A DNA stretch of 43,064 bases from Pseudomonadota bacterium. Lineage in GTDB: Bacteria > Myxococcota > Myxococcia > Myxococcales > Anaeromyxobacteraceae. Position numbers and translations under genes: made by a program. Positions 1 to 17,017 of the stretch are shown one piece after another (position 1 is the stretch's first letter; the number at the start of each line of letters is the position of its first letter). A model generated the notes under the pieces. It worked only from the letters and a program-made list of their open reading frames with translations. It was not told the origin of the DNA and did not search any database. The stretch spans positions 1-43,064 of the forward strand of contig JAEZXM010000105.1 in the NCBI GenBank assembly GCA_023419875.1. The letters are read 5' to 3'.

Positions 1-702
1 GTTGAAGAGGTCGTTCTCGTCCTTGGGGAGCAGAACTCCTTTGAGCTGGGCGCGCAGGTACTCCAGCGCTCCGGCGAGATCGCGGACAGCGTCGAGCCGA
101 TCCTCTGGCGTGGCGCGATACCGTCGATACTTCTGAACCGCCGCCCTGACCCGCTCTTCAACCCGCGTGGGCGAGCCGGGTGGTAGCGCAGCGCGAGCGA
201 GGACCTCGAAACCTTCCTCTGCAAGCTGGACGATCTCGCCGTTCTCGGCGAGTTCATAGCCGCGGACGTAGTCGGCGAGCAGAAGGTTGACTTCCTCCCG
301 GAACGCCCGGCGACCTTCGGCCTCATCGAACTCGGTGTAGTGATAGCCGCAGTCGTTGTACCGATGGTACTCGCCTTCACTGGCTGGCATGGACGCATGG
401 TCGTGGAGCAGCTCGATCATGTCGAACAGGTCTTCTTCCGAGTACCGTTGCCAGTGCTCCCAGATCGGCCAAAGCCCCTCCTTCCGAAGAGCGAACAGAA
501 CGAAGGACTGAACGTCGCCGACCTTGCCCGGGATGAAACCATCCGTGCAGTTGATCCCAAGGTGCTGCTGGAAGTACCCGTCGCCCTCCATCTTCTGGAA
601 CATCGTGTAGAAGAGCTTCTTGAGCGTCGGGAGATCGAGCCTCTCACCCGCTGGATGTTTCCCTGTTCGGACGGAGTAGTAGCGTCGAGAGGGCCTCTTC
701 AC
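1..702 (-). CDS. AbiJ-like/HEPN-type putative abortive-infection protein, 3'-partial (runs off window edge; not in ORF track)
   Basis: Hand translation from GTG at 702 is open for 234 codons to base 1: MKRPSRRYYSVRTGKHP...EEDLFDMIELLHDH...YELAENGEIV...DAVRDLAGALEYLRAQLKGVLLPKDENDLFN. An AGGAGG RBS overlaps the hsdR stop. The sequence resembles AbiJ N-terminal + HEPN proteins; the catalytic R-x4-6-H would lie just beyond the edge. Confidence 0.65.
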   Translation of the reverse strand, partial: MKRPSRRYYSVRTGKHPAGERLDLPTLKKLFYTMFQKMEGDGYFQQHLGINCTDGFIPGKVGDVQSFVLFALRKEGLWPIWEHWQRYSEEDLFDMIELLHDHASMPASEGEYHRYNDCGYHYTEFDEAEGRRAFREEVNLLLADYVRGYELAENGEIVQLAEEGFEVLARAALPPGSPTRVEERVRAAVQKYRRYRATPEDRLDAVRDLAGALEYLRAQLKGVLLPKDENDLFN

Positions 703-713
703 CTGGCAGCCTC

Positions 714-3700: not shown

Positions 3701-3752
3701 GGAGGTGCTCCTCGATGGCGGTCTCGAAGGCGCGCTCGGTGTGCTGGGGCAT
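714..3752 (-). CDS. hsdR: Type I restriction endonuclease subunit R
   Basis: 1012 aa; nuclease motif D...LNGLPIATVELKN; helicase motifs QHSAGSGKS, DEAH, FTATP, TGFDQP, QTLSRLNR. Confidence 0.97.
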   Translation of the reverse strand: MPQHTERAFETAIEEHLLGHGWHKGDPTRFDRSLALDAAEVLRFIAETQGETWGQLRSQHGENVGKTVIEWLANALDHQGMLDVLRHGFGFMGKWLRVAAFKPSHGMNPDLLEKYAKNRLTATRQVRFDPGSEQSLDMLLSLNGLPIATVELKNPLTGQNVQHAIAQYRIDRNPHLPVFRFGKRALVHFAVDPDLVYMTTELRKQETFFLPFNRGNGTAAGNPEVKSGYKTSYLWEEVLARDSFLDILARFVHRQEEEKVEGGKKKIVETMIFPRYHQLDAVRKLEAAARTEGPGHNYLVQHSAGSGKSNSIAWVAYRLAELHREDARVFHSVVVVTDRRVLDKQLQDTVHQFDHAEGFVQKVDQDSKQLAEALEKGVPIIVTTLQKFPVAAEKIGTLPDRAYAVIVDEAHSSQGGESAAKLKEVLRTQKTKTATPEEASLAAAEAETASEAASPEEDAEELLKRAMESRGRQKNLSFFAFTATPKAKTLEVFGRKGEDGKPRPFHLYSMRQAIEEGFILDVLKNYTTYKTYWKLLKATAADPKVPKREAAAQLARFVSLHPHNLAQRTEVMVEHFRNRVRHRIGGKAKAMVVTASRLHAVRYRQAFDKYIKEKGYTDVRALVAFSGTVEDPDVPGKSYTEPGMNDGLGEKQLPAAFASDAYNVLLVANKYQTGFDQPLLHTMYVDRRLAGVQAVQTLSRLNRTCRGKEETFVLDFVNDEEEIRVSFQPYYEQTQVAESPDPQNLYKLQHELEAPQVFLPSEVEAFCKVFYRPRKVQTGADHAELYRHLDPAVDRFKAKDQEVQDAFRTALGAYVRLYAFLAQILPFTDSALEKLYTFGRYLETKLPADPKKTPLALDAETKLAYYRLSLVREDAPIILTAGEEVPVYGPDEAGMKRSEPEEVLLSEIIDVLNERFGTDFKKADQLAIDSVAEELKADETVQQHAAVNPIDNFALAVKGRIEGAFVDRMDKNADIAARFLNDEHFRAVLTEYLVRKVHGDLTAVPATGAHGR

Positions 3753-5083
3753 CAGGCAGCCTCCTGGGCGGCGACGTCGAGCTGGCCGGTGACGGCGGCG
3801 GTGACGAGGGCCTGGCGGTACTCGCGAAGTCCGTCGATGCTCTTGGCGGCGGCAGCTTCGAGATCATCGAGCTTGCCGACTTCGGCATCGAGATACGCGG
3901 CGATCTCATCCTGCTCTTGGCGGGGCGGTACGGGGATGAACGGGCGCTTGAGATCCCGGATGTTGATCCCCTTCACGGTCGCGCCGACGATGCCGGCCGC
4001 GAGCTGCGCCCACACCGGCGCCGACTGGACCGCATAGAGAAGCCATCGAGGATTGACGCCGGGAGCAGGCGCGATCCGGGCTGCATCCTGGGTGAGGTTC
4101 GCCCCGGCGACGTCCTCCGGGACCAGCGCGGCCATCCCGATGCTGCCACGGATTGCGTAGACGATGTCATCAGCCGCCAGACGCGACCGGGCGTACCCCG
4201 CCTCGATCTCGAGTGTGGTCCTGTGGAGCATCTCGGGACGGAGCGTCTCCCGCGTGCAGTTGCCGCTCTTCACGATGGATACGCCTTCGTCCACGTTGGG
4301 CCCGGGCAGAACGATCCCGTACATGATCGGCCGGCCGGGAGCCGTGAGGTACATTAGTCGCTTCACAAACCAGTGCTCGGGGATCGCGCCGAGTGGGGTG
4401 CCGGTGTTCCGGCGCTTTGCCTTGGACAGCACACCCACGACGACTTCGCCGATGAGGGCGGCGCGTCGCTCCTCGGCAACCGCGACGAGCTGTTCCTTCC
4501 TCTCGATGAGGGCGTCGATGGCGGTCGTCCTGTGGTCGAGGAAGTCGGCGATGGCTCGCTGCTCGGGAAGAGGCGGCACCGGGATCGCCAGCCTGCGAAT
4601 GTCTGGCATGTAGATCGTCTGGTGCGTGGACCCCATCATCATCCGCGCGAGCTCGGGCTTCATCGCCCGGAACGCCCAGAGCAGGTAGTCGGGGAGGAGT
4701 CGCGGTCCGCAGACCCAGTTCGCGAAGTCCTGGGTCGTGGCCATCGGTCTCGGCATAATGCCGGAGAAGCCGACGGACGCGGTTCTGGAGAGGACCACGG
4801 TCCCTGCCGGGAGCACTCTCGCAGCCGAGTTCGCGACGCCAAGGGCGCTGATCTTCTCCGCCGTGTCGCCGAGGTATTTCTGGTTCGCCTCCCGCAACTG
4901 CCAGACGTCCGCGAGGGAGAACCACGGGATCGTGCACTCCTCGGGAGTCCAGTATTCCGGGTGCTGCCGGCTCGGGGTATGTCCCGATTCGAGGCGCGCG
5001 ATCAGGCACACTTTCGCGCTGTCCCAATGAAGGGGGATGCGAGCGGCCCAGGGCAGCCCGGACGGCTTGGTCCGCACGCTCAC
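3752..5083 (-). CDS. hsdS: Type I R-M specificity subunit S (two TRDs)
   Basis: 443 aa; two conserved IPVPP..EQ..IA..LD helical spacers and C-terminal YRQALVTAAVTG; overlaps both hsdM and hsdR. Confidence 0.95.
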   Translation of the reverse strand: MSVRTKPSGLPWAARIPLHWDSAKVCLIARLESGHTPSRQHPEYWTPEECTIPWFSLADVWQLREANQKYLGDTAEKISALGVANSAARVLPAGTVVLSRTASVGFSGIMPRPMATTQDFANWVCGPRLLPDYLLWAFRAMKPELARMMMGSTHQTIYMPDIRRLAIPVPPLPEQRAIADFLDHRTTAIDALIERKEQLVAVAEERRAALIGEVVVGVLSKAKRRNTGTPLGAIPEHWFVKRLMYLTAPGRPIMYGIVLPGPNVDEGVSIVKSGNCTRETLRPEMLHRTTLEIEAGYARSRLAADDIVYAIRGSIGMAALVPEDVAGANLTQDAARIAPAPGVNPRWLLYAVQSAPVWAQLAAGIVGATVKGINIRDLKRPFIPVPPRQEQDEIAAYLDAEVGKLDDLEAAAAKSIDGLREYRQALVTAAVTGQLDVAAQEAA

Positions 5084-7167
5084 CCGAGCACCTCGCCCAG
5101 CATCCCTTGGATCTCCCCCTCCAGCTTTCGGATGTCCGCCTCGATATCCGCGAGCGGCCGGAGCGGCGTGAACTTGTAGAAGTGGCGGGTGAACGGGATC
5201 TCGTACCCGTCCCGGGTCTTCGACTCGTCGATCCAGGCGTCGGGGACGTGCGGCTTCACCTCCCGGTCGAAGTAGGTCTGGATGTCCTCCTTGCGCGGCA
5301 CGTTCTCGTAGTCGCGCAGCTCGGGGTCGGGCTCGAGGTTGCCGCTGGCGTCGCGGCAGACCTCGGCCGTCTCGTCCCGCTCGCCGAGCGCCGAGAGGAT
5401 CGCCTTCCGGACGGGCGCGGAGATCTTGCCGACGGGCTCGATGGCCGCATCGAGCGCCTCCTCGAACTGGCTGCGGTGCTTCCAGACACGGTCACCGCCC
5501 AGCCCCGCCAGTGCCGCGAGGAGCTTCTCCTGGAGCGTGCGCCCCTCGGTGGCTTCCAGCTCCCCGGCCTTCCCCTTCTTCTTGGTCCGGGCAAGGTTCT
5601 GGAACGCGGTCTCCTCCTTCAGGCACGCGATCCGCTCCGGCGTTGCCTGGAACGCGAGCCGCAGGGGGCGTTCCACCACGATCCGCCGATAGCCGAAGTC
5701 GTCGTTGTCGAAAATCCTGGACCGCTCCATCTCCCTGAACTCGCCGTACAGTTTCACGATCTCTTCGATCTGGGCTTTGGACAGCTCGTTCCGCTTGTTC
5801 CCGAGGCTCTTCTTCATCTTCTGGAAGAGGTCGGTGGCGTCGATGAGCTGGACCTTCCCCCGCCGTGCCTCTGGCTTCCGGTTGGTGATGACCCAGACGT
5901 AGGTGGAGATCCCGGTGTTGTAGAAGAGCTGGTCGGGCAGGCCGACGATGGCCTCCAGCCAGTCGCTCTCGATGATGTACCGCCGGATCTCGCTTTCCCC
6001 GGAGCCAGCGTCGCCCGAGAAGAGCGGCGAGCCGTTGAACACGATGGCGAGTCGGCTCCCGCCGCCCTTCACGGGCTTCATCTTCGAGAGCATGTGCAGG
6101 AGGAACAGCGTGGAGCCGTCGCTGATCCGGGGCAGGCCCGGCCCGAACCGGCCCGAGTAGCCCTGCGTCTCGTGCTCCGCCTGGATGGCCGCCTGCACCT
6201 GCTTCCAGTCGACGCCGAACGGCGGGTTGGAGAGCATGTAGTCGAACCGCGTGCCCGAGTGGCCGTCCTCGGTGAAGCTGTTGCCGGGGGTGATGCTCGA
6301 GGGGTTCTGCCCCTTGATCATCATGTCGGCCTTGCAGATGGCGAAGGACTCGTCGTTCAGCTCCTGGCCGAAGACCGAGAGCTTGGCCGCCGCGTTCAGC
6401 TCCCGGAGGTACTCTTCGGCGACCGACAGCATCCCGCCCGTTCCGCAGGCCGGATCGTAGAGCGAGCGCACGATGCCGGGCTTCTGGAGCGCGTCGTCGT
6501 CCTCGACGAAGAGGAGGTCCACCATGAGGCGAATCACCTCGCGAGGGGTGAAGTGCTCCCCGGCCGTCTCGTTCGACTGCTCCGCGAACCGCCGGATGAG
6601 CTCCTCGAAGATGAGCCCCATCGTGTGGTTCGGGACCGTGGCCGGGTGGAGGTCCACCTCCGCGAACCGCTGGAAGACGAGGTAGAGCAGGTTGTCGCGG
6701 GCGAGCTTCTCGATGTGCGTCGCGAACCCGAACCGCTCGAGGAAGATGTCTCGGGCATCCCGGGAGAAGCCCTGGATGTACTTGAGCAGGTTCGGGCCGA
6801 GGTGGTTTGGGTCACCCTTGAGCTTCTCGAAGTCCAGCTTCGAGACGTTGTGGAATGGGACGCCCGTGATCCGGTTCAGCACCGGGCCGAGGTTCTGCTC
6901 CTTCACCTTGCCGCCCTTCATCGCCTCGGCCTTGGCGAGCACCTTCGGCTTCGTGTCGCGGAGCACGCAGTCGAGTCGCCGCAGGACCGTCATCGGCAGG
7001 ATGACCTTGCCGTAGTCGGACTGGCGGTAGCTTCCGCGAAGAAGGTCGGCGATGGACCACAGGAAGTTCGCGATCCCGCTGAAACCGTTGAGCTTCTGGC
7101 CGTGATCGGCCGGAAGCTGGAGTTCCTGCTGGTCCTTGGTGGTCAAGGCTTGGGAAGGGCTGGCCAT
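5080..7167 (-). CDS. hsdM: Type I R-M N6-adenine methyltransferase subunit M
   Basis: 695 aa; GEHFTP, YDPACGTGGML (SAM binding), catalytic NPPF, LFYNTGISTY. Confidence 0.97.
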   Translation of the reverse strand: MASPSQALTTKDQQELQLPADHGQKLNGFSGIANFLWSIADLLRGSYRQSDYGKVILPMTVLRRLDCVLRDTKPKVLAKAEAMKGGKVKEQNLGPVLNRITGVPFHNVSKLDFEKLKGDPNHLGPNLLKYIQGFSRDARDIFLERFGFATHIEKLARDNLLYLVFQRFAEVDLHPATVPNHTMGLIFEELIRRFAEQSNETAGEHFTPREVIRLMVDLLFVEDDDALQKPGIVRSLYDPACGTGGMLSVAEEYLRELNAAAKLSVFGQELNDESFAICKADMMIKGQNPSSITPGNSFTEDGHSGTRFDYMLSNPPFGVDWKQVQAAIQAEHETQGYSGRFGPGLPRISDGSTLFLLHMLSKMKPVKGGGSRLAIVFNGSPLFSGDAGSGESEIRRYIIESDWLEAIVGLPDQLFYNTGISTYVWVITNRKPEARRGKVQLIDATDLFQKMKKSLGNKRNELSKAQIEEIVKLYGEFREMERSRIFDNDDFGYRRIVVERPLRLAFQATPERIACLKEETAFQNLARTKKKGKAGELEATEGRTLQEKLLAALAGLGGDRVWKHRSQFEEALDAAIEPVGKISAPVRKAILSALGERDETAEVCRDASGNLEPDPELRDYENVPRKEDIQTYFDREVKPHVPDAWIDESKTRDGYEIPFTRHFYKFTPLRPLADIEADIRKLEGEIQGMLGEVLG

Positions 7168-7290
7168 GGGGTCCCAATCCTACTCGGAACGCGGACCTGA
7201 AGGTCCGATCCGAGGGCCGATCCACGTTCGTGTCGGGGGGGTGTGGGATGGGGGTATCCGAGAAGTGCAGTTGAGCCTGGGCGTGCACCC

Positions 7291-7968
7291 ATGACCAAGT
7301 TCGTCTTCCAACTCGCGGTGGTGTTCCTTCCTGGCCTGATCTGGTCCACCATCGTGGACCGGCTCTGCACCAGAACCCGTGCGAGGTCGGAATCGAGCAG
7401 GGTTCTCCGAGCCTTCGGGTTCGGTGTCGCGAGCTACTTCGTCTATTTCATCGTCTACTACGCTGGCTTCCGCCTCTGGTTCGGCGTGTGGCCGGCCGTA
7501 TTAGCGGGAATCACCTCGGCACCCGGCGTCGGGGATCTTCGCGTTCTGAGGCCCCAGGACATCCTGTTCACGAGCTTGCTGGCGGCAGTGTTGGCTGTGC
7601 TGTGGGCGGCCGGCTCGAATCGCAAGGTGTTCATGCGCCTTATGCAGTGGCTTCGCGTCACGAGGAAGTACGGAGACGAGGGCGTCTGGGAGTTCACCTT
7701 CAACAGAGGTACACCGTCTGTCGAGTACGTGAACGTCAGGGATTTCGAGAACCGAGTCGTTTACGCTGGGTTCGTGCAGGCGTTCTCGGAGGGCGGGCAA
7801 TATCGGGAGATCCTGCTCGAGCATGTCCGCGTCTCCGAACTCGACAGCGGGAGGCACCTCTTCGAGATGCCGGTGGTCTATCTGTCCCGAAAGCCAGACT
7901 CGCTTCACATCGAGTTCCCGTTCAAGCCGCAGCCAAAGAAGGAGGAGGACCAATGTCCGACGACCTGA
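7291..7968 (+). CDS. Membrane protein, probably DUF6338-like (about 3 N-terminal TM helices plus soluble beta-rich C-terminal domain)
   Basis: From ATG 7291: FLPG motif in the first TM, hydrophobic segments, then VWEFTF...YVNVRD...VYAGFVQAFSE...EILLEHVRV...VYL....IEF, the pattern I associate with DUF6338. Confidence 0.65.
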   Translation: MTKFVFQLAVVFLPGLIWSTIVDRLCTRTRARSESSRVLRAFGFGVASYFVYFIVYYAGFRLWFGVWPAVLAGITSAPGVGDLRVLRPQDILFTSLLAAVLAVLWAAGSNRKVFMRLMQWLRVTRKYGDEGVWEFTFNRGTPSVEYVNVRDFENRVVYAGFVQAFSEGGQYREILLEHVRVSELDSGRHLFEMPVVYLSRKPDSLHIEFPFKPQPKKEEDQCPTT

Positions 7969-8108
7969 AGCGTGTAGTGCGAATTGATGATGGCACGCTC
8001 AAGAAGGGCGGCGTGAACCGTGAGTATCAGATCCCGCAGCAGCAGCGCCCGCCAGACCCGCCACCGATGAGGCCGCCGCCTGCTCCTCCGTCCAAGAAGA
8101 GTGAGTAG
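7953..8108 (+). CDS. Pro-rich micropeptide 1 (51 aa)
   Basis: Strong RBS AAGGAGGAGG before ATG 7953; MSDDLKRVVRIDDGTLKKGGVNREYQIPQQQRPPDPPPMRPPPAPPSKKSE; paralogue directly downstream. Confidence 0.75.
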   Translation: MSDDLKRVVRIDDGTLKKGGVNREYQIPQQQRPPDPPPMRPPPAPPSKKSE

Positions 8109-8111
8109 GAA

Positions 8112-8276
8112 ATGGCACACGAGACTAAGGGCGGGGGACGCATCGACGGCGGAACGGATCAACGGGGTGGCGTGAACACGGGCTATCAGATCTCGCCTCA
8201 GCAGCGTCCACCTGACCCGCCTCCGATGAAGCCGGCGACCACGACGAACCCGGCGCCACAACCGAAGAAGGACTAA
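8112..8276 (+). CDS. Pro-rich micropeptide 2 (54 aa), paralogue of micropeptide 1
   Basis: ATG 3 nt after the peptide-1 stop; MAHETKGGGRIDGGTDQRGGVNTGYQISPQQRPPDPPPMKPATTTNPAPQPKKD; 23/32 identical to peptide 1 over residues 10-41, with many synonymous differences. Confidence 0.75.
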   Translation: MAHETKGGGRIDGGTDQRGGVNTGYQISPQQRPPDPPPMKPATTTNPAPQPKKD

Positions 8277-8286
8277 GGGAGGGAGG

Positions 8287-8670
8287 ATGGCCAAGAACAA
8301 CCGCATCTTCATCAGTTTCGCCGCCGAGGACGCCGACTACCGCACGATGCTCGTCGGTCAGGCTCGGAACGGGAGGTCGCCGTTCGACTTCATCGACATG
8401 TCCGTGAAACAGCCCTGGGACGAGAAGTGGAAGACGAACTGTCGCACGAAGATCAAGGGGTGCGACGGGCTCATCGCGCTCATCAGCTGGAGGACGATGC
8501 ATGCAGATGGAGCGCGCTGGGAGATAGGCTGCGCCAACGACGAGAGGGTCCCTGTTCTCGGCGTCCAGATCAACTCGAATGCGCCCGCCGCAGTGCCTCC
8601 TGAGCTCTACGGCAAGCCCGTGATCGCGTGGACTTGGGACGGGATCGCGACATTCATCAACGGACTGTGA
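8287..8670 (+). CDS. Stand-alone TIR domain protein (ThsB/MTH538-like)
   Basis: 127 aa; RIFISFAAED, KIKGCDGLIALIS, WEI (catalytic Glu), VPVLGV, WTW; RBS GGGAGGGAGG. Confidence 0.9.
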   Translation: MAKNNRIFISFAAEDADYRTMLVGQARNGRSPFDFIDMSVKQPWDEKWKTNCRTKIKGCDGLIALISWRTMHADGARWEIGCANDERVPVLGVQINSNAPAAVPPELYGKPVIAWTWDGIATFINGL

Positions 8671-9233
8671 TGGAATCCGAGCAAGCCAAGTCGACGGCGC
8701 CGGACTCGCGCGACGAGAAGGACGCGGAGAGCGAGGCCAAGCGCTGTGCGTCGTCCGTTCTGCTGGGGGTGAGGCGGGGGGAGTACGGGGAGTCCTTCAG
8801 CCAGCACCGACTCGAGCAGTACAAGCTCTACGTCGAGATGGCCGATCGCGTGAGCAGCCGGCGGATGACGGCTAACTCGTTCTTCGTGACGATCAACACG
8901 GCGCTCGTGGCCTTCCTCGGTCTCGCGGTCGCGAAGGACGAGACGGAGCGCCTCGGCTGGTACGTGGCGGTATCCGTAGCGGGGGTAACGGTGAGCGCGC
9001 TGTGGTACTTCCTGATCCGGTCGTACCGGGATCTCAACTCGGCCAAGTTCAAGGTTGTCCACCTCGTCGAGTCGGGGCTGCCGCTCAGGCTCTATGACGC
9101 GGAGTGGGAGATGGTGGGCCGAGGCGAGAACCCGAAGCTCTATCTGCCCGTTACCCACATCGAGACGAAGGTCCCCTTGCTGTTTATCTCTATCTACGTC
9201 GGGCTCGCTGCGTACGTGCTCGTGTTCACGTAG
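8670..9233 (+). CDS. Small 3-TM membrane protein, resembles the RipA/8xMP (octameric membrane protein) putative pore family
   Basis: TGATG overlap with the TIR gene; motifs LEQYKLYVEMADRVSSRR..ANSFFVTINT, WYFLIRSYRDLNSAKFKVVHLVE..LP, EW, TxIE..VP; three hydrophobic helices. Confidence 0.7.
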   Translation: MESEQAKSTAPDSRDEKDAESEAKRCASSVLLGVRRGEYGESFSQHRLEQYKLYVEMADRVSSRRMTANSFFVTINTALVAFLGLAVAKDETERLGWYVAVSVAGVTVSALWYFLIRSYRDLNSAKFKVVHLVESGLPLRLYDAEWEMVGRGENPKLYLPVTHIETKVPLLFISIYVGLAAYVLVFT

Positions 9234-9240
9234 CCCTCGC

Positions 9241-9831
9241 CTACCGGCGGCGGGGCTTCCTCATCGCCTTTCTGATCTGCTTGGCGATCCCGTCCCACGT
9301 CCAGTTGATAACTGGGACCCCAAACAGCGCTCCCGGCATTCGTCCCTTGTCGGCTCTGTCTATGTAGACGCCGAACATCGGGACGCCCTCCTCCTTTGCG
9401 ACCTTGATCTCCCAGAGGACACCCTCGGCGGCGTGGGTACCATCACCGATGAGCACGATCACGACGTCGCAACCCTTGATGCGGGGCCGTGTCTGCGTCT
9501 TCCAGGCGTTGTCGAACGGCTTGTGGAGCGAGAAGTCGGCCAACTCGAAAGGTGTATCCGAGTTGCGGCTCTGCCCGACGAAGAGGTTGCGTGCGGCCTC
9601 GTCCTCCACCGCGAAGCTGATGAAGGCCCGTGGCTTCCGTACCGCCGCGGTACTCCTCCCTGCTCGCGGCTTCTTCTTCGGGGGCTCGCCGGTTGGAGGT
9701 GGAAGGCCCGGCGCTTTCTCTGCCCGAGTAGCCGCGATCCATACGATTGCCGCACCGAGAAGCAGCAAAGGAATCGCAAGCGCTCGAAGCAGCGCCCGAG
9801 GGTCGGCGCGTAGCCTATCGAACCAGGTCAT
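9241..9831 (-). CDS. TIR domain protein with N-terminal transmembrane anchor and Pro/Lys-rich linker
   Basis: 196 aa; TM ALAIPLLLLGAAIVWIAA; then AFISFAVED...IKGCDVVIVLIG...WEI...WTWDGIA; aligns without gaps to the 8287-8670 TIR. Confidence 0.85.
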   Translation of the reverse strand: MTWFDRLRADPRALLRALAIPLLLLGAAIVWIAATRAEKAPGLPPPTGEPPKKKPRAGRSTAAVRKPRAFISFAVEDEAARNLFVGQSRNSDTPFELADFSLHKPFDNAWKTQTRPRIKGCDVVIVLIGDGTHAAEGVLWEIKVAKEEGVPMFGVYIDRADKGRMPGALFGVPVINWTWDGIAKQIRKAMRKPRRR

Positions 9832-9864
9832 GGGTCATGGTCACGGCGGCATCGCCGGCGGAGG

Positions 9865-10059
9865 TCAAGCGTCTTGGCACGCAGGGCACATGAGGCGGGC
9901 GCGATGCCGTTGGTAGTCCGTGATGATCCAAAGGCGAGCGCCAGGCTGCAACAACAGGTCCGCCGGTCTTCCACAGCGAACGCAGCGCATGAACAGCGAG
10001 GAGCGAAGCGCATGACGCCGCGTCGCTCGGAGCGCTTTCTCAACATCGAGAGTGGGCAT
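9865..10059 (-). CDS. Putative small zinc-ribbon protein (64 aa)
   Basis: Two CxxC pairs (CVRC, CPAC); GGGA upstream of ATG; co-oriented and 33 nt upstream of the TM-TIR gene. Confidence 0.4.
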   Translation of the reverse strand: MPTLDVEKALRATRRHALRSSLFMRCVRCGRPADLLLQPGARLWIITDYQRHRARLMCPACQDA

Positions 10060-10260
10060 GCGTCCCGCGTATCACACCGTGCTGACGGTCCGTCCACCTC
10101 GGGTCCTTGGGACCAGGCGGAAGTCTCTGTCCTCGGCCTCGGTACAGAACCCGACCACGAACGTTTGCGGCCTGGCGCGAGGCGTATCGGCGCGCGAGCC
10201 GCGCGGCCTTGACCTCCTCCGGATAGGTTCTTCCTGTTCGAGGGGCAGCGCACCGCGTCG

Positions 10261-12867
10261 TCATGCGGATGGTTTCGGACGCCGGCGAAAGAGCGGAGTC
10301 CAATTGGCCCCACGCTCCCAGAGCGCGGTCACGGTGACCGTAGGGACGTTGTAGTAGAAGACGAGGAGCTTTCCGGTGTTCCCGTATCCAAGAAGGCGAT
10401 CGTGAAGCTTGTCCTGGGTCCACGGGTCCCGCCGCCGCATGGTCTTGGGGCGCAGGATCGCAGCGGTCTGCTCCTGAAGGAACGCCTTTAGAGAGTCACG
10501 CTCCCTGAGATCGGTGAACACTTCCCGTCCCGTGAACATCTCGTCGCGGTCCGAGACGACGTCGGGGGGCGGCAGCAACGACACGTTCCTCAGGCCATGC
10601 TTATCGAGGAACCTGCGGAGAGTCGTAAGGCCCGAACGCCTGCCCATTGAGAACGCGATGGTCACTTGCCGGTTTCTGAACCCGGCGACGCGGTCACGCG
10701 ACAAATGGGATGTGAGGCGCTCGTGGAGCGCGGTATCCGGCAGCTTGAGCCACTGAATGAATGCCGTCTTGGTGTGTCCCGCCGCACCACAGAAGTCATC
10801 CCACAAGACAATCTGCCCGCGCCCGCGCGACTCAAGCGCAAGCTCGAGCTGCATCACTCGACGCCGGAGCTTCGCAGGGATGTCATTCATGAGGTATGTC
10901 AGGAGCGCGCTGCTGTCCCCAGTTGCGCCGAGCGGGCACACTGCACGGACCTCACCGTTAGCGAGCGCTGAGTTCATGATGCGCTCGAGTGAACGCGCGA
11001 AGTACCGTCGGTCCTTGAAGTCAACGTGTTCGAGCATCCGAAGCGCCGCGCGAGCCATCTTCTCCGACTGGAACTGCCTAAGGAAGGCAGCAATGGACGC
11101 AGCAGTGATTGGCCCTCTACCCGGGACCTGGTACTGACCGAAGGTGTCGTGGAGGCTCTCGATCCGGGGCCACGCGGCCTTCAGGAAGTGCTCGAGCGAG
11201 GCGGCCTGGTAGGTCCTGACGCTCGATGCCTTGACGTTCGACGCCTCATCCCGACGCAGAGCAGCGCCCTTCTTCGCCAGCGTTTCTTCTGCAACCTTGA
11301 TCTCTTCGGGATGCAGCTTGGCGCGCCGGAACGCGGATGAGTCGACGGGCTGCCCGTAGTTACGCATGATGACGGAACGAGCAGCGATAAACACGGGAAG
11401 GACGCATTCTTCGGGTGCGAACACGTACCCTTCGGCACTCGATATGCGGCGACCGGCCTCGGCCCGTTCCCCGCCGAACGCTGTTGCGGCGAGCTTGAAG
11501 TCCTCTGCCGTGTCACCAACGAACGCGTGTCGGTCCATGCCGGACCGGGTGAGGTCCGGGACGTTTACAGCGGGTGGGATGAGGCGAAGTGGCTGGGCAT
11601 GTGCGCCAAGAAGCTTCGCGAAGCGAGTCGCTTTCTCCGTGATCTCGCGCTCGAGCTTGCCGGATCGCACAGCATCGCGCAGCGAAAGCCATAGGGTCAG
11701 GTCCTCGCCCTTGGGGCTCTTCTCTGAGTTCTTGATGAAGAAGGCGCGCTTGGGCAGGCGTCGCTCGCGAAGCATCCGCGCATGCAGTAGCTGGCGATCT
11801 CCAACGAGTTCATCGTCCGAGAGCGACAGCCAGTCCCGGATCGAGGTGAGGCTCCCGCGTCTAGCCTTCTCGGCCAACAGGCGGCGTGCGACGAGCTCGA
11901 GTGCTTGGACCTTGTGGTGCTGGTAGACCTTCTCGAACAAGAAGTTCTTCGTGACCGCGAGCTCGTGGAGCGCACGAGATCCTGGCGCGCTCAAGACCAA
12001 CGTCGTTATGAGGCCGCTCTTTGGGGGAGCCCACTTGGCGTAGTCGCGGGGGAGCTTGGCCACGGGAACGCTGACCGTGTGGACCTTCTCGATGATGCGC
12101 TTCACGTCGACCGCGGACGGGATGCCCGCCATGGCGCTGTCGCGCGGCATGTAGTCAAGCTTGTCCGCATCGAACGGTCCGTTCAGCAAGAGCGAGAGGT
12201 ACTCCTTCCCTGGGTCGACTGCCCCCGCGACGACGTAGCCCGCTATGCGTCGGGTCGCGTCATCGACGTCCTTGATGAAATCGGCTCCTACCTCGGTCGC
12301 GCCCAGAAAACCGCGAAACGCACGCGAACGGATGAAGACAGCGGCGAACGCCTCGCTGGGAGAGGGTACCTTGCGGGTCTTGTACTCCGTCGTGATCCTG
12401 GAGATGAGCTCCCTCACGCCAGGGAGTTCCGCGACGAGCGGCTCCGAAACATGACTGAACGCGGAATGGCCGCAGTCGTGGACCAGCGCGGCGATCCGAA
12501 GCAGCTTCGTGGTCACGTCATCAACGATGCGTTCTCCTGCAAGCCCCGAGTTGCGCTCCAGGCCGTCGATGAGCTGCTGCATCTGATGGAGCACGCCGAG
12601 GGAGTGCTCGAGCCGGCTATGGCCGGCGCCAGGAAACACCCAATGAGCGACACCGAGCTGCCGGATGTACCTGAGCCGCTGAAGCAGCAAGGTGTCGAGG
12701 AGAGCCGCCTCCCAGCTGAAGAGACGGATCGTTCCCCAGACCGGGTCGTTGATAACCTTAGGGCGCGCATGGGAGTGGCCAGCACGCAGACGCTCCGTAT
12801 GCGGAGCGACCCACTGGTCACAGAGGCGTTCGAGCTCAGCGGTGAGGGCAGCGGCCGGGTCCGCCAC
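10261..12867 (-). CDS. HD-superfamily phosphohydrolase (SAMHD1/YdhJ dNTPase-like) fused to a C-terminal phosphoribosyltransferase-like domain
   Basis: N-term DPVWG, LQRLRYIRQLG, HSRLEHSLG, AALVHDCGHSAFSH, DADKLDY, KVYQH. C-term FLRQF, GDSSALLTY, IVLWDDFCG, LGYG..GKLLVFYYNVP..T...LW....WTPLFRR. Start placed at in-frame GTG 12867, just past the upstream stop (ORF track start 12915). Confidence 0.85.
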   Translation of the reverse strand: MADPAAALTAELERLCDQWVAPHTERLRAGHSHARPKVINDPVWGTIRLFSWEAALLDTLLLQRLRYIRQLGVAHWVFPGAGHSRLEHSLGVLHQMQQLIDGLERNSGLAGERIVDDVTTKLLRIAALVHDCGHSAFSHVSEPLVAELPGVRELISRITTEYKTRKVPSPSEAFAAVFIRSRAFRGFLGATEVGADFIKDVDDATRRIAGYVVAGAVDPGKEYLSLLLNGPFDADKLDYMPRDSAMAGIPSAVDVKRIIEKVHTVSVPVAKLPRDYAKWAPPKSGLITTLVLSAPGSRALHELAVTKNFLFEKVYQHHKVQALELVARRLLAEKARRGSLTSIRDWLSLSDDELVGDRQLLHARMLRERRLPKRAFFIKNSEKSPKGEDLTLWLSLRDAVRSGKLEREITEKATRFAKLLGAHAQPLRLIPPAVNVPDLTRSGMDRHAFVGDTAEDFKLAATAFGGERAEAGRRISSAEGYVFAPEECVLPVFIAARSVIMRNYGQPVDSSAFRRAKLHPEEIKVAEETLAKKGAALRRDEASNVKASSVRTYQAASLEHFLKAAWPRIESLHDTFGQYQVPGRGPITAASIAAFLRQFQSEKMARAALRMLEHVDFKDRRYFARSLERIMNSALANGEVRAVCPLGATGDSSALLTYLMNDIPAKLRRRVMQLELALESRGRGQIVLWDDFCGAAGHTKTAFIQWLKLPDTALHERLTSHLSRDRVAGFRNRQVTIAFSMGRRSGLTTLRRFLDKHGLRNVSLLPPPDVVSDRDEMFTGREVFTDLRERDSLKAFLQEQTAAILRPKTMRRRDPWTQDKLHDRLLGYGNTGKLLVFYYNVPTVTVTALWERGANWTPLFRRRPKPSA

Positions 12868-12869
12868 GA

Positions 12870-13283
12870 CTACTCGAGCTGCTGAGCGAAGTACCGTCCG
12901 AGCTGCTCGAACCACTTGCCATCAGGAAGTCGCTTCAGCTGAGCCTTCGCGTCAGATGGCCCGATCTTGAACTGGGCCTTCTCCAGGTCCGGATTCATCA
13001 GAGACAGCACGCGATCCTGCTCACCCTCGAGCAGCATCTCGCTCGCCTCGGAGCACACCCCGAAAATGGGGTCCACGTGGAAGGTCAGATTCCGGAGGAG
13101 GCCCCGACGCGCAGTCTTCTTCGCCTTCTCGACAGTCGAGACGAAGGCCCGGTGGAAGTCCTCTCCCTCAGCGGGGAAGTCCTTCTTGTAGATCCGGAGT
13201 CCGAACAGGAGCCCTCGGTAGAAGGTCACTCTGTCCATAGGCGATGCCCCCTCGCTGCGTCCTGGCTTCGATTCCACGCTCAC
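12870..13283 (-). CDS. Hypothetical protein (122-137 aa), possibly winged-helix
   Basis: Fills the space between the MerR and HD genes with 18-nt and 2-nt gaps; GAGG-type RBS before both GTG 13283 and ATG 13238. Confidence 0.7.
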   Translation of the reverse strand: MSVESKPGRSEGASPMDRVTFYRGLLFGLRIYKKDFPAEGEDFHRAFVSTVEKAKKTARRGLLRNLTFHVDPIFGVCSEASEMLLEGEQDRVLSLMNPDLEKAQFKIGPSDAKAQLKRLPDGKWFEQLGRYFAQQLE

Positions 13284-13301
13284 TTCCTCAACCTGCCCGA
13301 C

Positions 13302-13757
13302 CTACTCACCGTGTGCGTTGACGGCCGCCAAGCGGCTCGTAACGTCCCGCCGAATCGTCTTCATCTCGACGATGAAGCGGAACGCGTACTGCCCGGTCGT
13401 GAGCTCCTCCAGCAGCCGGCGTGGTGAGCTGCTGAAGTAGACCTCCGTGCCGTCAGTGACCAGGAAGCGAGCGTTCGAGGGCTCGCCCCGTACCTGTGGA
13501 TGGGCCCGCTGTAGCGCCTGAAGCGACCGCTTAAGCCTGGCAACGCCCACGCCTGCCTTCAGGAGTTGCGCGACGGTGCGCAGCATGACGAGGTCCACGA
13601 AGGAGTACATCCGCGGACTGCCTCTTCCTCGCCGGCTCGTGTGGGTCGGGACGACGACCCCCGTCCGGCAGAGGTAGTCGACCATCGCCGTCGACAGGCC
13701 CGCGACCTCGGCCGCGAGACCGATCTCGTACCCCTGGCGAGTCGATCCGCTACCCAT
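13302..13757 (-). CDS. MerR-family HTH transcriptional regulator
   Basis: GYEIGLAAEVAGLSTAMVDYLCRTGVVVP...GRGSPRMYSFVDLVMLRTVAQLLKAGV, then LVTDG.EVY and GQ..F, typical of a MerR-like subgroup. Confidence 0.88.
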   Translation of the reverse strand: MGSGSTRQGYEIGLAAEVAGLSTAMVDYLCRTGVVVPTHTSRRGRGSPRMYSFVDLVMLRTVAQLLKAGVGVARLKRSLQALQRAHPQVRGEPSNARFLVTDGTEVYFSSSPRRLLEELTTGQYAFRFIVEMKTIRRDVTSRLAAVNAHGE

Positions 13758-13764
13758 AGAATCG

Positions 13765-13793
13765 AGTTTAGATCGGGACTCTGAAGTTCTCCA
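13765..13793 (-). promoter_or_regulatory. Possible sigma70-type promoter for a leaderless merR transcript
   Basis: Minus strand TGGAGA-17 nt-TAAACT ending 7 nt before the ATG; no RBS present. Confidence 0.3.
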
Positions 13794-14398
13794 GTCGAGA
13801 AATCCGGGGCTGCATGCCGGCAGGATGCTCGCCTGGCTCCCTCATGGGTCACCGCGACTGCAAACGGCGTGCTGGGGCGGCGTGCTACGGGCGAACGAGC
13901 CGCCTGTGGAAACGGCACTGGCTGAACGGAGCGGCGCGCGGACGCGAGTCCGCAGGACGACCGATCATCGGTGGACGACGTGCGGATGGGCTCCGATGTC
14001 GGGTGACCCTCCGAACCGGAACTCGAGCAGGGTGAGGGCGCTAGACCGGCAAGGTTTCTGCTGGTCGGCATCGTGGCTGTAGGGGTGCTCCGAGAAGAAA
14101 CACTCGCCGTGCGGTCCACCCGACAGCCTCAAGGAGGCCGAGCGGCCCACAGGTTAGGCGATGCTGCGCGGGGTCATGGGCCAGGCGATGCGATCCAGCG
14201 TTTCTCAGCCGACGAGGGGATCTAGAAGCGGAGCGAAGGGGAACGGCAGGCGCCTGGAGGCGACGCTCAAGCCCAGGTTCGGTGAGGCTGCGAGTGAACT
14301 ACTTCGCAGTCAGACGGCACTAACAGCGCGGGCGGATCTCGTTGTGGTCGGCGGGGCGCGGTAGTCTCGCTGCAAGACTTCGAACGCTGGAGGGACTC

Positions 14399-14755
14399 AT
14401 GACTCGTGCCGAAGCACTACAAGGGCTGGACCGGAAGGAGCACATGGTGATGTGCTATCTCTGGTCTCGTCAGTTCGAAGCGCCACTCGAAGCGGGATCA
14501 CATAAAGTGAAGGCTGGTGTGAACCTGACAATCACGCGCCTGCGCCAGCGCGACGCCGTCGGCATGGTTCACTACTACTGGAGCGCCGTCACCGGTACCG
14601 AGCGAAGCGTGCCGTTCGCGAAGCTACTGCGAAGCGAACGGTTTGACGTTTTCGAGACCGAGACCACGCTGTTCGACTTTAGAGATCGCTTCAACGACCA
14701 GTGGTTCCGAGCCACCGCCCCGCCGATGTGCCCGTTCTGCGGCCAAACCTTCTAG
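14399..14755 (+). CDS. Hypothetical protein (118 aa)
   Basis: GGAGGG RBS before ATG 14399; globular-looking composition; ends MCPFCGQTF. Confidence 0.65.
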   Translation: MTRAEALQGLDRKEHMVMCYLWSRQFEAPLEAGSHKVKAGVNLTITRLRQRDAVGMVHYYWSAVTGTERSVPFAKLLRSERFDVFETETTLFDFRDRFNDQWFRATAPPMCPFCGQTF

Positions 14756-15014
14756 CGCTCGTCATGGGCAGGCGGCACAGAGGCGTCGCGCGCTGCTATC
14801 CGAGGCCAGAGCGGGGCTTAGCCTGCTCGTGATGGATCGAGGGGTTCCGCTTGTCCGCCGAGCGAGCCTGGTCCGGCGCTGCACCGACCAGATGCTGACG
14901 TCGCCCCGCCGTCGTTGACGAGCGGGCGGAGCGTGGGCTCGCCTGAAAGAGGTGGCGCGGGGGCTTTCGCGCATGCTCGCTCGAGGACGACGTGGTGGGA
15001 AACTTGAGCAGCGC

Positions 15015-16541
15015 ATGGACGGCCCTCAGAATCATCATGTGGAGCCGATCACGACAAACATCTCGGGGATCAATCCAACCTTCAAGGACTCCGAGTTGGT
15101 ACTCGGGCTGGTCGCGCCGGTCGGGACGGACTTCGATAAGTTCCATCACTTGCTCACGAGGCGGTTGGCGGAATTCGGCTATGCCGTTAACCCGGTGAAG
15201 CTGAGTGCCTTGGCCGACAACTTCCAAGCGAAGACCCCGGCTCCTCCCGCAGGCGCTTCTACGGAGGCGATACGCATCAACCGGCTGATGCATGCCGGCA
15301 ACTATCTTCGCTTCGAGTCACGTCGGGGCGAGTTCTTGGCGCTTGCTGCCGCAGCCGACATTCGAGCGCACAGAAGAGATGGTGAGGTTCTCCAGAAGAC
15401 GGCCCACGTCGTTCGTTCACTGAAGCATCCGGATGAAGTCCGTGCGCTGCGACGAATCTACGGTGCCGGGTTCTACCTGGTCGGCGTGACGGTGAACGAG
15501 AAGCAGCGACGCGAGTACCTGTGCGATCACAAAGGGTGCCGACCGGACGAAGTTGCCGAGCTCCTGCGCAGGGATGAGCACGAAGAAGACCCTGGGTACG
15601 TCGATGAGGAGGGTCAGAACTACGGACAGAGAACGCGGGACACCTTCCAACTCGCGGACGTCTTCATCCCGCTTGACTCCGAGGACCGGCTCGACCGCTT
15701 CCTCAAGCTGGTGTTCGGCTGCCCATTCGAAACACCCACGCCGGAGGAGTACGCGATGTACCTGGCGTTCGGCGCAGCCCTTCGGTCCGGTGACCTGTCT
15801 CGCCAGGTGGGAGCGGTCGTGGTTACCGAGAAGGGGGATCTGGTCAGCGTCGGAGCGAATGACGTCGCTCGCGCCGGTGGCGGTCTCTACTGGCCGGGAA
15901 AAGGGGACGAGCGCGACTTCGTTCGCAACGAAGACTCGAACGAGGTGCAGCGAGACGTGATTCTCCAAGACGTGCTCAAGCGCCTACTTCCCGAGGGTCA
16001 GGATGAGGCCTCGTGGATCGAGCGGGGCAGGAAGCTCCTCAAGCCTAGCCCTCTGATGGACATCACGGAGTATGGCCGGGCGACCCACGCGGAAATGGAG
16101 GCGCTGCTCTCGTGCGCGAGAAACGGCATTCCCACCCGGAACGCGACTCTCTTCTCGACCACGTTCCCATGCCACAACTGCGCGAAGCACATCATCGCGT
16201 CCGGTGTCAGGCGGGTCGTGTACGTTGAGCCGTACCCGAAGAGCCAAGCGGCGAGACTTTTCAGTGATTCGATCAGGTTAGCGGGGGTAACGAAGGGCAC
16301 CCGTCGAGTTCTGTTCGAGCCGTTCGTGGGCATCGGGCCCAGACGATTTCTTGACCTCTTCTCTGTCGGTCTCTCATCGGGTACAAGTGCCGCTCGGAAG
16401 AAGGGAGGCGCGGTGATTCCCTGGAGTCCCGAGAAGGGAGTTGTCAGGGTCCCCTGTCTTCCGAACTCGTACCTAGATCGAGAAAAGTTGGCGGAGAAGG
16501 AACTCTCCGCGCGCACGACTCCACCGAGGGAGCCCAGATGA
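15015..16541 (+). CDS. Anti-phage dCTP deaminase (P-loop kinase-like domain + deaminase; Dcd/AvcD type)
   Basis: SELVLGLVAPVGTD, SLKHPDEV, GQRTRDTFQLADVF, LRSGDLSRQVGA, HAEMEA and FPCHNCAKHII (Zn-deaminase), YVEPYPKS. Start uncertain (14952-15015). Confidence 0.93.
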   Translation: MDGPQNHHVEPITTNISGINPTFKDSELVLGLVAPVGTDFDKFHHLLTRRLAEFGYAVNPVKLSALADNFQAKTPAPPAGASTEAIRINRLMHAGNYLRFESRRGEFLALAAAADIRAHRRDGEVLQKTAHVVRSLKHPDEVRALRRIYGAGFYLVGVTVNEKQRREYLCDHKGCRPDEVAELLRRDEHEEDPGYVDEEGQNYGQRTRDTFQLADVFIPLDSEDRLDRFLKLVFGCPFETPTPEEYAMYLAFGAALRSGDLSRQVGAVVVTEKGDLVSVGANDVARAGGGLYWPGKGDERDFVRNEDSNEVQRDVILQDVLKRLLPEGQDEASWIERGRKLLKPSPLMDITEYGRATHAEMEALLSCARNGIPTRNATLFSTTFPCHNCAKHIIASGVRRVVYVEPYPKSQAARLFSDSIRLAGVTKGTRRVLFEPFVGIGPRRFLDLFSVGLSSGTSAARKKGGAVIPWSPEKGVVRVPCLPNSYLDREKLAEKELSARTTPPREPR

Positions 16542-16735
16542 CGAAGATCTTGCGGAACATGTCGACCGAGGCAAGCAGGGCGTTCTGGGAAACTGTCGAG
16601 AGTTCTGCTGCGGAAGTGGAGCAGTGGCCCGCTTGGAAGCGGGCAGGGATCAACGTGGCGCAAGTCCGCGATGAGGCCGAAGGAGCCCTCGCTGAGCCTA
16701 GGCCTGCTGAAGGCACACCGCCCAGCGACCAGTAG
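16538..16735 (+). CDS. Small protein (65 aa) translationally coupled to the dCTP deaminase
   Basis: ATGA overlap, GAGGGAG RBS; FWETVESSAAEVEQWPAWKR amphipathic Trp-rich core. Confidence 0.6.
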   Translation: MTKILRNMSTEASRAFWETVESSAAEVEQWPAWKRAGINVAQVRDEAEGALAEPRPAEGTPPSDQ

Positions 16736-16795
16736 GGAGTCACCGCTCTCCGGGTGGTCCAGGCGTTGGAATCGGGTACACGCAGAGTCCGTAAA

Positions 16796-16850
16796 CCTGG
16801 TGCCATTTCGTGTCGGCAGACGTCGCTTCCTGCCGTTTCCTGGCACCAGG
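16796..16850. repeat. Inverted repeat near island end
   Basis: CCTGGTGCCA (16796-16805) / TGGCACCAGG (16841-16850) perfect 10 bp; inner CGGCAG/CTGCCG pair. Confidence 0.6.
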
Positions 16851-16911
16851 TGTCACCCCTAACCCTTGATTACCCTTAGCTTCGGTGGGGTTAGCAGCCG
16901 GTCGAGTACTT

Positions 16912-16955
16912 CTGAAAATCCCCGTGTCGCTGGTTCGATTCCGGCCCCAGGCACA
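16912..16955 (+). pseudogene. 3' half of tRNA-Phe(GAA): att-site remnant
   Basis: CTGAAAA anticodon loop, TCCCC, GTGTC, T-arm GCTGG-TTCGATT-CCGGC, acceptor strand CCCAGGCA. Upstream TACTT cannot pair with TCCCC, and no D-arm or GCCTGGG 5' strand is present. Confidence 0.88.
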
Positions 16956-16978
16956 CACAACAGAGCTCGAGCTTCGGT

Positions 16979-17017
16979 AGGCCCCGCGGCGAAAGCCGGC
17001 GGGGCCTCGGTGTTTTT
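16979..17017 (+). terminator. Rho-independent terminator (probably the native tRNA-Phe terminator)
   Basis: AGGCCCCGC-GGC-GAAA-GCC-G-GCGGGGCCT followed by CGGTGTTTTT. Confidence 0.8.

Follow-up and report, generated by a model that had tools for sequence, protein, structure and literature searches.

Results

Organization of the operon

The window, by which we mean the whole stretch of DNA analysed (43,064 nucleotides (nt); positions 1 to 43,064 of contig JAEZXM010000105.1, GenBank assembly GCA_023419875.1), belongs by its GTDB lineage to the family Anaeromyxobacteraceae in the phylum Myxococcota. Three consecutive minus-strand genes, read from the list of open reading frames (ORFs) and from the sequence, form an operon. 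The first encodes a MerR-family helix-turn-helix regulator of 151 amino acids (aa; 13302..13757), the second a small protein (12870..13283), and the third a protein of 868 aa with a GTG start (10261..12867), in which a SAMHD1-type histidine-aspartate (HD) core is fused to a phosphoribosyltransferase (PRTase)-like domain. The second and third genes make up a pair that recurs in several phyla, and the small protein is predicted to bind the large one. This pair is the main subject of the present analysis.

The large ORF spans 10261-12915. The in-frame internal GTG at 12867 was taken as the start of the fusion because the resulting length is that of database record P0001 (868 aa, 100% identity) and because it agrees with the N-termini of homologues. 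The small protein has 137 aa if translated from GTG 13283, 18 nt after the MerR stop codon, and its own stop codon lies 2 nt ahead of GTG 12867. An ATG at 13238 is probably the likelier start (122 aa; 63-nt gap after MerR), since GAGGGGG precedes it, residue 16 is the first in the Atlas record, and the gene calls of close relatives give 123 aa. The three genes, the gaps of 18 and 2 nt and both enzyme domains had been put forward in an original prediction made from the letters alone, and all were confirmed in the sequence. A promoter scan found nothing, inverted repeats upstream of the MerR gene are weak, and the terminator-like sites (6 versus 2.4 expected) are not informative.

The SAMHD1-type HD core

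The HD core occupies residues 36-345 of the fusion (11833..12762, minus strand). Pfam HD (PF01966) matches at an E-value of 3.2e-6, and a single-sequence phmmer comparison finds human SAMHD1 chains at an E-value of about 1e-19. With a profile built from 30 sequences of several phyla, the match improves to 3e-38 for SAMHD1 and to 1.5e-46 for the Aquifex HD protein 2hek. The alignments with SAMHD1 pass through the motifs KVINDP, QRLRYIxQLG, HxRxEHSLGV, HDxGHxxFSH and DxDKxDYxxRD; motifs of the whole large protein in the window copy, as read from its sequence, are HSRLEH, HDCGHSAFSH, DADKLDYMPRD and IVLWDDFCGAAGH. Twelve residues of the core are invariant in the 30-sequence alignment (H83, R85, H88, H130, D131, H134, H139, D235, K236, Y239, R242 and D243). 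They include the complete metal-binding set H...HD...D, aligned with the SAMHD1 motifs and consisting of H88, the dyad H130-D131 (12475-12480; coordinates confirmed by translation) and D235. They also include the substrate and catalytic positions R85, H134, H139, K236, Y239 and D243, which align with residues of SAMHD1 that we take to be R164, H210, H215, K312, Y315 and D319. The description of this part as a complete SAMHD1-type HD domain in the original prediction is thus borne out, with the catalytic set intact. By NCBIfam, the protein is not a Dgt-type dGTPase (TIGR01353, 26.8 bits against a cut-off of 152.35); the dGTPase model of PADLOC matches weakly (E 3.1e-5) and covers 60 residues.

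The HD core is followed by a helical middle region (residues 346-592; 11092..11832, minus strand) that is HD_assoc_2-like in relatives. The corresponding Pfam family (PF19276) is precomputed on many homologues of the fusion, and the region is also present in relatives that have no domain beyond it, here referred to as HD-only.

Cyclic-nucleotide phosphodiesterases occur within the HD superfamily, and it has been suggested for this locus that the effector makes or erases a signal. In this case, the HD domain would be a phosphodiesterase erasing a nucleotide second messenger, and the PRTase would make or modify the signal. We consider this highly improbable. No result spoke in its support, the core aligns with the triphosphohydrolase signature of SAMHD1, including R85, H134, H139, K236, Y239 and D243, and the operon contains no cyclase, cGAS/DncV-like nucleotidyltransferase (CD-NTase) or sensor gene.

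Conservation of the pair

A word-indexed search returned 355 homologues of the fusion at E<=1e-3. The Pfam family PRTase-CE (PF24390) is found on 117 of the 120 homologues listed, which are mostly 836-963 aa long, all carry generic names, and come from records labelled Polyangiaceae, Labilithrix, Micromonospora, Rhizobium, Gemmataceae and Acidobacteriota. Single-protein scans gave no relative on the genome contigs and three loci in the metagenomes. The HD motifs of the 30-sequence alignment retrieved 80 genome loci, of which 11 encode the PRTase fusion; these other fusion loci belong to Myxococcota, Actinomycetota, Pseudomonadota and Thermodesulfobacteriota. Directly upstream of the fusion gene, all 11 have a gene for a protein of about 125-145 aa that the small-protein profile finds at E<=1e-28. 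With this constancy and 355 homologues of the fusion, the arrangement is more than a chance one.

The association extends beyond the fusions. Immediately ahead of the genes of HD-only relatives, which consist of HD and HD_assoc_2 (about 515-617 aa), lie ORFs that the small-protein profile matches weakly. An hhalign comparison of the fusion-linked with the HD-only-linked small proteins (98.6%, E 5.5e-16) established the two sets as homologous, and the broadened profile found more of them. In a tree of 81 HD cores, every partner-associated enzyme falls into a 45-member clade (support 100/100), in which the small gene is present upstream in 40 members; of the five others, two have no upstream DNA. 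In the sister clade, by comparison, the small gene is absent from all 36 loci, irrespective of position in the locus, and the HD enzymes are roughly 400-480 aa long. The partner-lacking clade includes, at locus L075 (4056-6377; Chitinophagaceae), a protein in which a Ser/Thr protein kinase domain (Pkinase, E 8e-24) is fused ahead of the SAMHD1-like HD domain.

Within the partner-associated clade, the 12 fusions, including that of the window, form one side of a weakly supported branch (86/16) and combine with three further enzymes into a group of 15 (96/92). The three (L004, L020 and L013) are the closest relatives of the fusions in the HD tree and have HD genes encoding 786-814 aa, the ORF of L020 ending at the contig end. 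In L004 and L013, the PRTase domain is replaced by C-terminal regions of about 230 aa that match no Pfam family and are dissimilar to each other; that of L004 gave low scores in the Atlas (<=0.83). These replacements suggest that modules have been swapped at this position. Because the partner precedes HD-only relatives in the same clade, the conserved core is the small protein and the HD enzyme, with PRTase-CE as a later addition.

The small-gene stop codon lies 73-288 nt ahead of the conserved HD core (median 137; 39 loci), and five of five genomes have one copy of the small gene each. The distances among small proteins track those among HD cores (r 0.86; none of 999 permutations as high), a correlation that is not decisive since co-inheritance would give the same result.

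The MerR gene behaves differently from the pair. Its product matches Pfam MerR_1 (E 5.5e-9; 36.4 bits, with a cut-off of 21.6) and bears a weak likeness to stress regulators of the HspR type (30.8 bits, with a cut-off of 105). The gene recurs at the same place in L094 (70% identity) and, in part, in L095, two metagenome relatives in which the fusion is 82-85% identical to the window copy. None of the 11 other fusion loci was found to have it ahead of the pair, and neither was L083, a relative from the same genus that is 55% identical to the query over the query's first 500 residues. At L013, a MerR homologue lies upstream of the pair on the opposite strand. Judged from these sequences, the regulator is a lineage-specific addition. 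Of the three-gene operon that had been proposed, the linkage of the small gene to the HD gene thus holds across the fusion loci, whereas MerR is confined to close relatives.

The small partner and its predicted complex with the enzyme

The small protein matches no family in Pfam, PADLOC, NCBIfam or PHROG, and no PDB sequence below an E-value of 0.24. Its AlphaFold2 (AF2) model has a mean predicted local distance difference test (pLDDT) value of 91.9 and the order helix-strand-helix...helix-hairpin-helix-helix of a winged helix. Foldseek returned nothing at E<=1e-3 for this model, and searches of the Atlas gave unnamed clusters, with MJ1567 at rank 23. Structure comparison by VIA yielded generic winged helices only, at Z 5-6.5, among them LmuC, JetB, a chain of the DarTG complex and the winged-helix domain of the Ec86 effector; because the scores are so closely spaced, no named relative can be singled out. 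The winged-helix family to which the small protein belongs is unnamed and runs to hundreds of members, 552 cluster representatives being reached at E<=1e-3. The 96 database members all go by "hypothetical" save one, which has been given an unrelated automatic name; Pfam domains are missing from all of them, as they are from the eleven longest members of the family (169-273 aa). There is also no sign of a fusion between the small protein and the HD enzyme, the best 150 of the 552 representatives all being <=273 aa.

The family has no conserved polar residues suggestive of catalysis, and P98 is the sole position conserved at 90%. Most members are acidic (isoelectric point (pI) below 7 in 71 of 84, median 5.35); the window copy has a pI of 8.7. 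This would sit better with a subunit that binds protein than with one that binds DNA in general, although the evidence is weak. The Panacea/YwgA antitoxin domain (PF13274), with which the small protein had been compared, was tried at the sequence level and matched by none of 84 and none of 15 family members, leaving that comparison without sequence support.

Complex prediction for the small and large proteins gave a score of 0.78 in each of three runs, against 0.00 for the best of three controls. Of 157 solved complexes, 116 scored this high, compared with 2 of 215 mismatched pairs; these counts hold only roughly here since analyst-made alignments were used in the prediction. The runs had at least 78% of contacts in common, with a partner pLDDT of at least 83. 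The contacts on the large protein (residues 159-167, 223-226, 273-289, 380-401 and 439-478) define a predicted docking surface on the HD and helical regions, much of it on the latter, and leave the PRTase domain untouched; on the small protein, the predicted interface includes residues 69-76 and 88-92. The modelled complex supports binding, with the small protein seated on the HD and helical part of the fusion, and the position of the contacts off the PRTase domain agrees with the occurrence of the partner beside HD-only relatives. The original prediction, which saw in the small protein a partner of the enzyme, thus gains from the controlled complex prediction, in which docking is to the HD and helical part and not to the PRTase domain.

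The C-terminal PRTase-CE domain

Residues 593-862 (10282..11091, minus strand) match PRTase-CE over profile positions 2-253 of 253 (E 6.3e-22; 79.1 bits against a cut-off of 27) and the PADLOC model PRTase_III-A, which describes the effector of type III-A retrons, at 1.3e-17. An AF2 model of the last 290 residues, based on an 11-sequence alignment drawn from the loci, has a pLDDT of 77.3 and a predicted template modelling score (pTM) of 0.78. The first nine Foldseek rows for this model are all PRTases (best E 5.3e-3, probability 0.96), no row being at E<=1e-3. VIA, which is independent of Foldseek, placed the orotate phosphoribosyltransferase domain of UMP synthase at Z 8.5 and uracil phosphoribosyltransferases at 7.9 and 7.7. 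At least 32 of 50 VIA rows, judged by title, are PRTases, phosphoribosyl pyrophosphate (PRPP) synthetases, PyrR or PurR. The combination of family match and moderate fold scores marks the domain as PRTase-like, its model being closest to PRTases of type I. A C-terminal domain without a PRTase fold would have spoken against the locus as first described; PF24390, PRTase_III-A and the predicted fold are all PRTase-like.

The PRPP loop reads DDFCGAAGH in the window copy, with D690-D691 at 10795-10800, and DDFxGSGxQ in the family consensus. A variant loop had been noted before, and this is correct for the window copy, the family consensus being nearer to the canonical form. The consensus resembles the loop of the Retron-Eco11 effector, mutation of which abolishes defence (PMC12746101).

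Could the domain be a regulator? The main alternative within the defence or toxin reading is that the HD enzyme, a predicted deoxynucleoside triphosphate (dNTP) hydrolase, is the sole effector and that PRTase-CE is a non-catalytic ligand sensor gating it by PRPP or nucleotide levels, much as in PyrR and PurR folds. The window loop without S/T-G, the HD-only relatives with a homologous small partner, the three relatives with other C-terminal regions (dissimilar between L004 and L013) and the fold matches to PyrR and PurR (Z 5.8 and 5.3) are all consistent with this. We still regard it as unlikely, given that the 30 sequences from several phyla do not vary at D690, D691 and several further positions of PRTase-CE, and that the consensus loop is near the Eco11 loop, which is essential for defence there (PMC12746101). 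The toxicity of another PRTase effector, ShosT, likewise requires its DD pair (PMC11961720).

PRTase-CE also occurs in another setting. On the Burkholderia contaminans plasmid NZ_CP090643.1 (L098, 5041-6888), a 615-aa protein combines an N-terminal domain of about 330 aa of unknown type with PRTase-CE (E 3.5e-18), and its gene adjoins an integrase.

Genomic context and distribution

The operon is located in a stretch of 61-67% GC, whereas the rest of the contig has 69-76% GC. Since the GC content steps up near 17 kb (1-17000 versus 17001-43064), the restriction-modification (RM), Toll/interleukin-1 receptor (TIR), HD-PRTase and deaminase genes constitute a low-GC island. The island holds a type I RM system, the genes of which were named from gene order and translation (hsdR, 714-3752; hsdS, 3752-5083; hsdM, 5080-7167). 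Within 8287-9233 (plus strand), a ThsB-like TIR gene (127 aa) overlaps the start of a gene for an 8xMP octameric membrane protein (PF24838, E 7e-43), and a second ThsB-like TIR gene lies at 9241-9831 (minus strand). Because ThsA models found no match among nine ORFs scanned around the operon, the arrangement may be a TIR and membrane-protein module rather than classical Thoeris. On the other side of the operon, a dCTP deaminase defence gene (14952-16541, plus strand; PADLOC dCTPase, 5e-157) follows a 137-aa ORF without family match (14342-14755, plus strand), and its stop codon is overlapped by a 65-aa ORF (16538-16735, plus strand). ARAGORN found no tRNA in the window, in which no Rfam family reached its gathering score either, and no reverse transcriptase (RT) domain was found in the nine ORFs scanned around the operon.

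The other fusion loci have different surroundings. PADLOC models matched (E<=1e-5) 2 of 54 flanking ORFs, both at one of the 11 loci, and the flanks consist mostly of ordinary metabolic or regulatory genes. The earlier proposal of a defence role thus has the context in the window on its side and receives little support from the flanks elsewhere. No synteny beyond the pair is common to these loci; transposases or an integrase adjoin L017, L018 and L028. The pair also occurs beside IS1634 and IS21 insertion sequences (IS) on plasmid pSMC-8_3 of Mycobacterium sp. SMC-8 (L097), where the fusion appears split or disrupted, because a separately annotated PRTase-CE fragment of 197 aa follows the HD gene. 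Among 80 viral-contig loci, three carry the pair, one of these with the full fusion. The phage collection gave two partial matches only, to the HD part of the query; of these, one was inspected and found outside the integrase, surrounded by host-like genes and lacking the small gene. Strong matches were found in 3 of 401 genomes of the phylum of the window and, in the phylum of genome G401, in 1 of 401, which is G401 itself. The pair is rare and patchy in its distribution.

This distribution bears on two further explanations. Housekeeping roles also exist for SAMHD1-like HD enzymes, and, as the main alternative outside the defence reading, the fusion could be an enzyme of dNTP or salvage homeostasis, or of stress, with a regulatory subunit and under a MerR-type stress regulator, uninvolved in conflict with phages. 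The ordinary genes in most flanks, the few PADLOC matches and the weak likeness of the MerR protein to HspR are in keeping with such a role. We judge it rather unlikely in view of the patchy occurrence, the lack of synteny beyond the pair, the copies on a plasmid and viral contigs, and the position of the window copy in a low-GC island together with RM, TIR and dCTP deaminase genes. Moreover, the PRTase domain belongs to the retron-effector family and not to a salvage PRTase family, and the 36-member sister clade of HD enzymes has no partner.

The adjoining IS elements, transposases and integrase, the plasmid copy, and the tight coupling of the enzyme to a small partner predicted to bind it would instead suit a toxin-antitoxin module that stabilises mobile elements and offers no real protection from phages. 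We hold this to be improbable, since the loci are mostly chromosomal and not clearly within mobile elements. Furthermore, many nucleotide-targeting toxin-antitoxin systems also defend, an example being ShosTA (PMC11961720), and the two roles are compatible.

Discussion

Relation to known systems

SAMHD1 and bacterial and archaeal SAMHD1-like dNTPases (such as PDB 2hek, 2o6i and 9mr6) share with the HD core its metal-binding and catalytic residues, as well as the motifs QRLR and DxDKxDY. Unlike SAMHD1, the fusion has no SAM domain and continues into a helical region of 250 residues and PRTase-CE, and unlike other SAMHD1-like enzymes it belongs to a separate clade (100/100) that is marked by the small upstream gene. 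The C-terminal domain links it to the effectors of type III-A retrons (Retron-Eco11, type III-A3) through both Pfam PRTase-CE and PADLOC PRTase_III-A. The likeness to Eco11 extends to the acidic pair in the PRPP loop and, in variant form, to a C-terminal Gly...N-x-P motif, and the effector lowers PRPP once triggered (PMC12746101). The retron PRTase is also accompanied by a winged-helix protein or domain (PMC7736814). However, the operon described here differs from these retrons in having neither an RT gene (nine ORFs scanned) nor an Rfam noncoding RNA (window), and its PRTase is placed behind an HD domain. Its winged-helix partner is a separate upstream gene product that is predicted to bind the HD region and that matches no PADLOC retron model.

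An organizational parallel is found in ShosTA, again a two-gene module in which the large protein combines an N-terminal phosphohydrolase-type domain with a C-terminal PRTase. In ShosT, a toxin of nucleotide metabolism, a pyrophosphatase-like hydrolase precedes a toxic PRTase, the DD pair being required for toxicity (PMC11961720). The N-terminal domain of the fusion is HD and not a Rossmann-fold pyrophosphatase, and the partner is a winged helix and predicted enzyme binder, unlike ShosA, which is DprA-like and does not co-purify with ShosT (PMC11961720). ShosT and ShosA models are absent from the PADLOC matches at E<=0.01.

Clover is similar in having an HD-type dNTPase gene beside a partner gene. 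Its dNTP-hydrolysing CloA, a dGTPase that is toxic on its own, is restrained by a product of the neighbouring gene, which encodes the nucleotidyltransferase CloB, and CloA and a single-gene defence dGTPase are reported to be mutual homologues with an H126/E129 catalytic dyad (PMC12265719). The fusion scores 26.8 bits on the NCBIfam dGTPase model, far short of the cut-off of 152, and its partner, which has no enzyme motifs, would act by binding rather than by synthesis of a nucleotide signal. DS-32 from DefensePredictor is a validated two-gene defence system of a NADAR protein and a PRTase-like protein (bioRxiv 10.1101/2025.01.08.631726). The last 40 or so residues of the fusion give a marginal match to NCBIfam DS32_1 (E 0.093), but DS-32 has another partner and no HD domain.

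No PADLOC model matches the whole system, in agreement with the original prediction, which did not recognise the operon as a named one. No HD-PRTase fusion with such a partner was found described in the literature, of which subscription journals were thinly covered and supplementary tables might list one. The PRTase-CE and HD-CE domains are already catalogued in Pfam; for the partner family and for its pairing with the fusion, we found neither a model nor a paper.

A candidate nucleotide-depleting module

How might the pair work? We propose, with about even confidence, that it is a mobile two-gene module, supplemented locally by MerR, that serves in anti-phage defence or as a toxin-partner pair and in which a nucleotide-depleting effector is controlled by a bound partner. 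The large protein would be the effector, its SAMHD1-type HD domain hydrolysing dNTPs and its PRTase-CE domain consuming PRPP or diverting purine salvage, and the loss of dNTPs and PRPP would collapse the nucleotide supply for a replicating phage. The small winged-helix protein, translated just before the enzyme, would bind to the HD and helical region as a restraining or sensing subunit, and an infection cue would alter its control of the enzyme. MerR would set transcription in this lineage only. Sequence and models give the gene order, the domains, the catalytic motifs, the conserved pairing and a predicted complex; what the enzyme domains do, whether the protein is toxic, whether the partner inhibits or activates it, what triggers the module and its part in defence are points that we infer. 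Retron-Eco11, ShosT and Clover provide precedents that support the nucleotide-depleting reading.

Several observations weigh against this proposal. Two concern the models: the complex score of 0.78 is a measure of model confidence and not a measurement, and the fold scores of both single-protein models (C-terminal domain and small protein) are middling, with Z no higher than 8.5 and no Foldseek match at E<=1e-3. The usual S/T-G is absent from the PRPP loop (DDFCGAAGH) not only in the window copy but also in its close clade, which makes PRTase catalysis uncertain in the window copy. HD-only relatives have a homologous partner, and three relatives carry other C-terminal regions, so that regulation, and not a second effector activity, may be the role of the PRTase domain. 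Finally, the flanks of other fusion loci are mostly ordinary, with few PADLOC matches, and SAMHD1-like HD enzymes are known to have housekeeping functions.

The conserved partner is in our view the most interesting part of the module. One intriguing but tentative possibility, which we think less probable than not to hold in full, is that the partner-associated clade represents an unnamed and widespread class of immune systems, in which a small acidic winged-helix subunit clamps the HD and helical body of a SAMHD1-like dNTPase until infection leads it to release or activate the enzyme, the C-terminus of which is swappable (PRTase-CE, another region, or none). If so, the version with PRTase-CE would remove dNTPs and, at the same time, the PRPP needed for their resynthesis, and control of a SAMHD1-type enzyme by a protein partner would differ both from allosteric control by nucleotides and from control through the Clover signal.

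Nucleotide depletion has been proven to work against viruses in hosts ranging from bacteria to humans, with SAMHD1 as the enzyme best known for it. The fusion joins two routes of depletion that have been studied separately, that of dNTPs and that of PRPP, in one protein, and the predicted seat of the partner on the enzyme body offers a testable model for how a dangerous enzyme may be restrained. If confirmed, the pair would add a new two-gene system to the catalogues of defence and would provide a functional context for a clade of HD enzymes that is defined by its partner and only partly equipped with PRTase domains.

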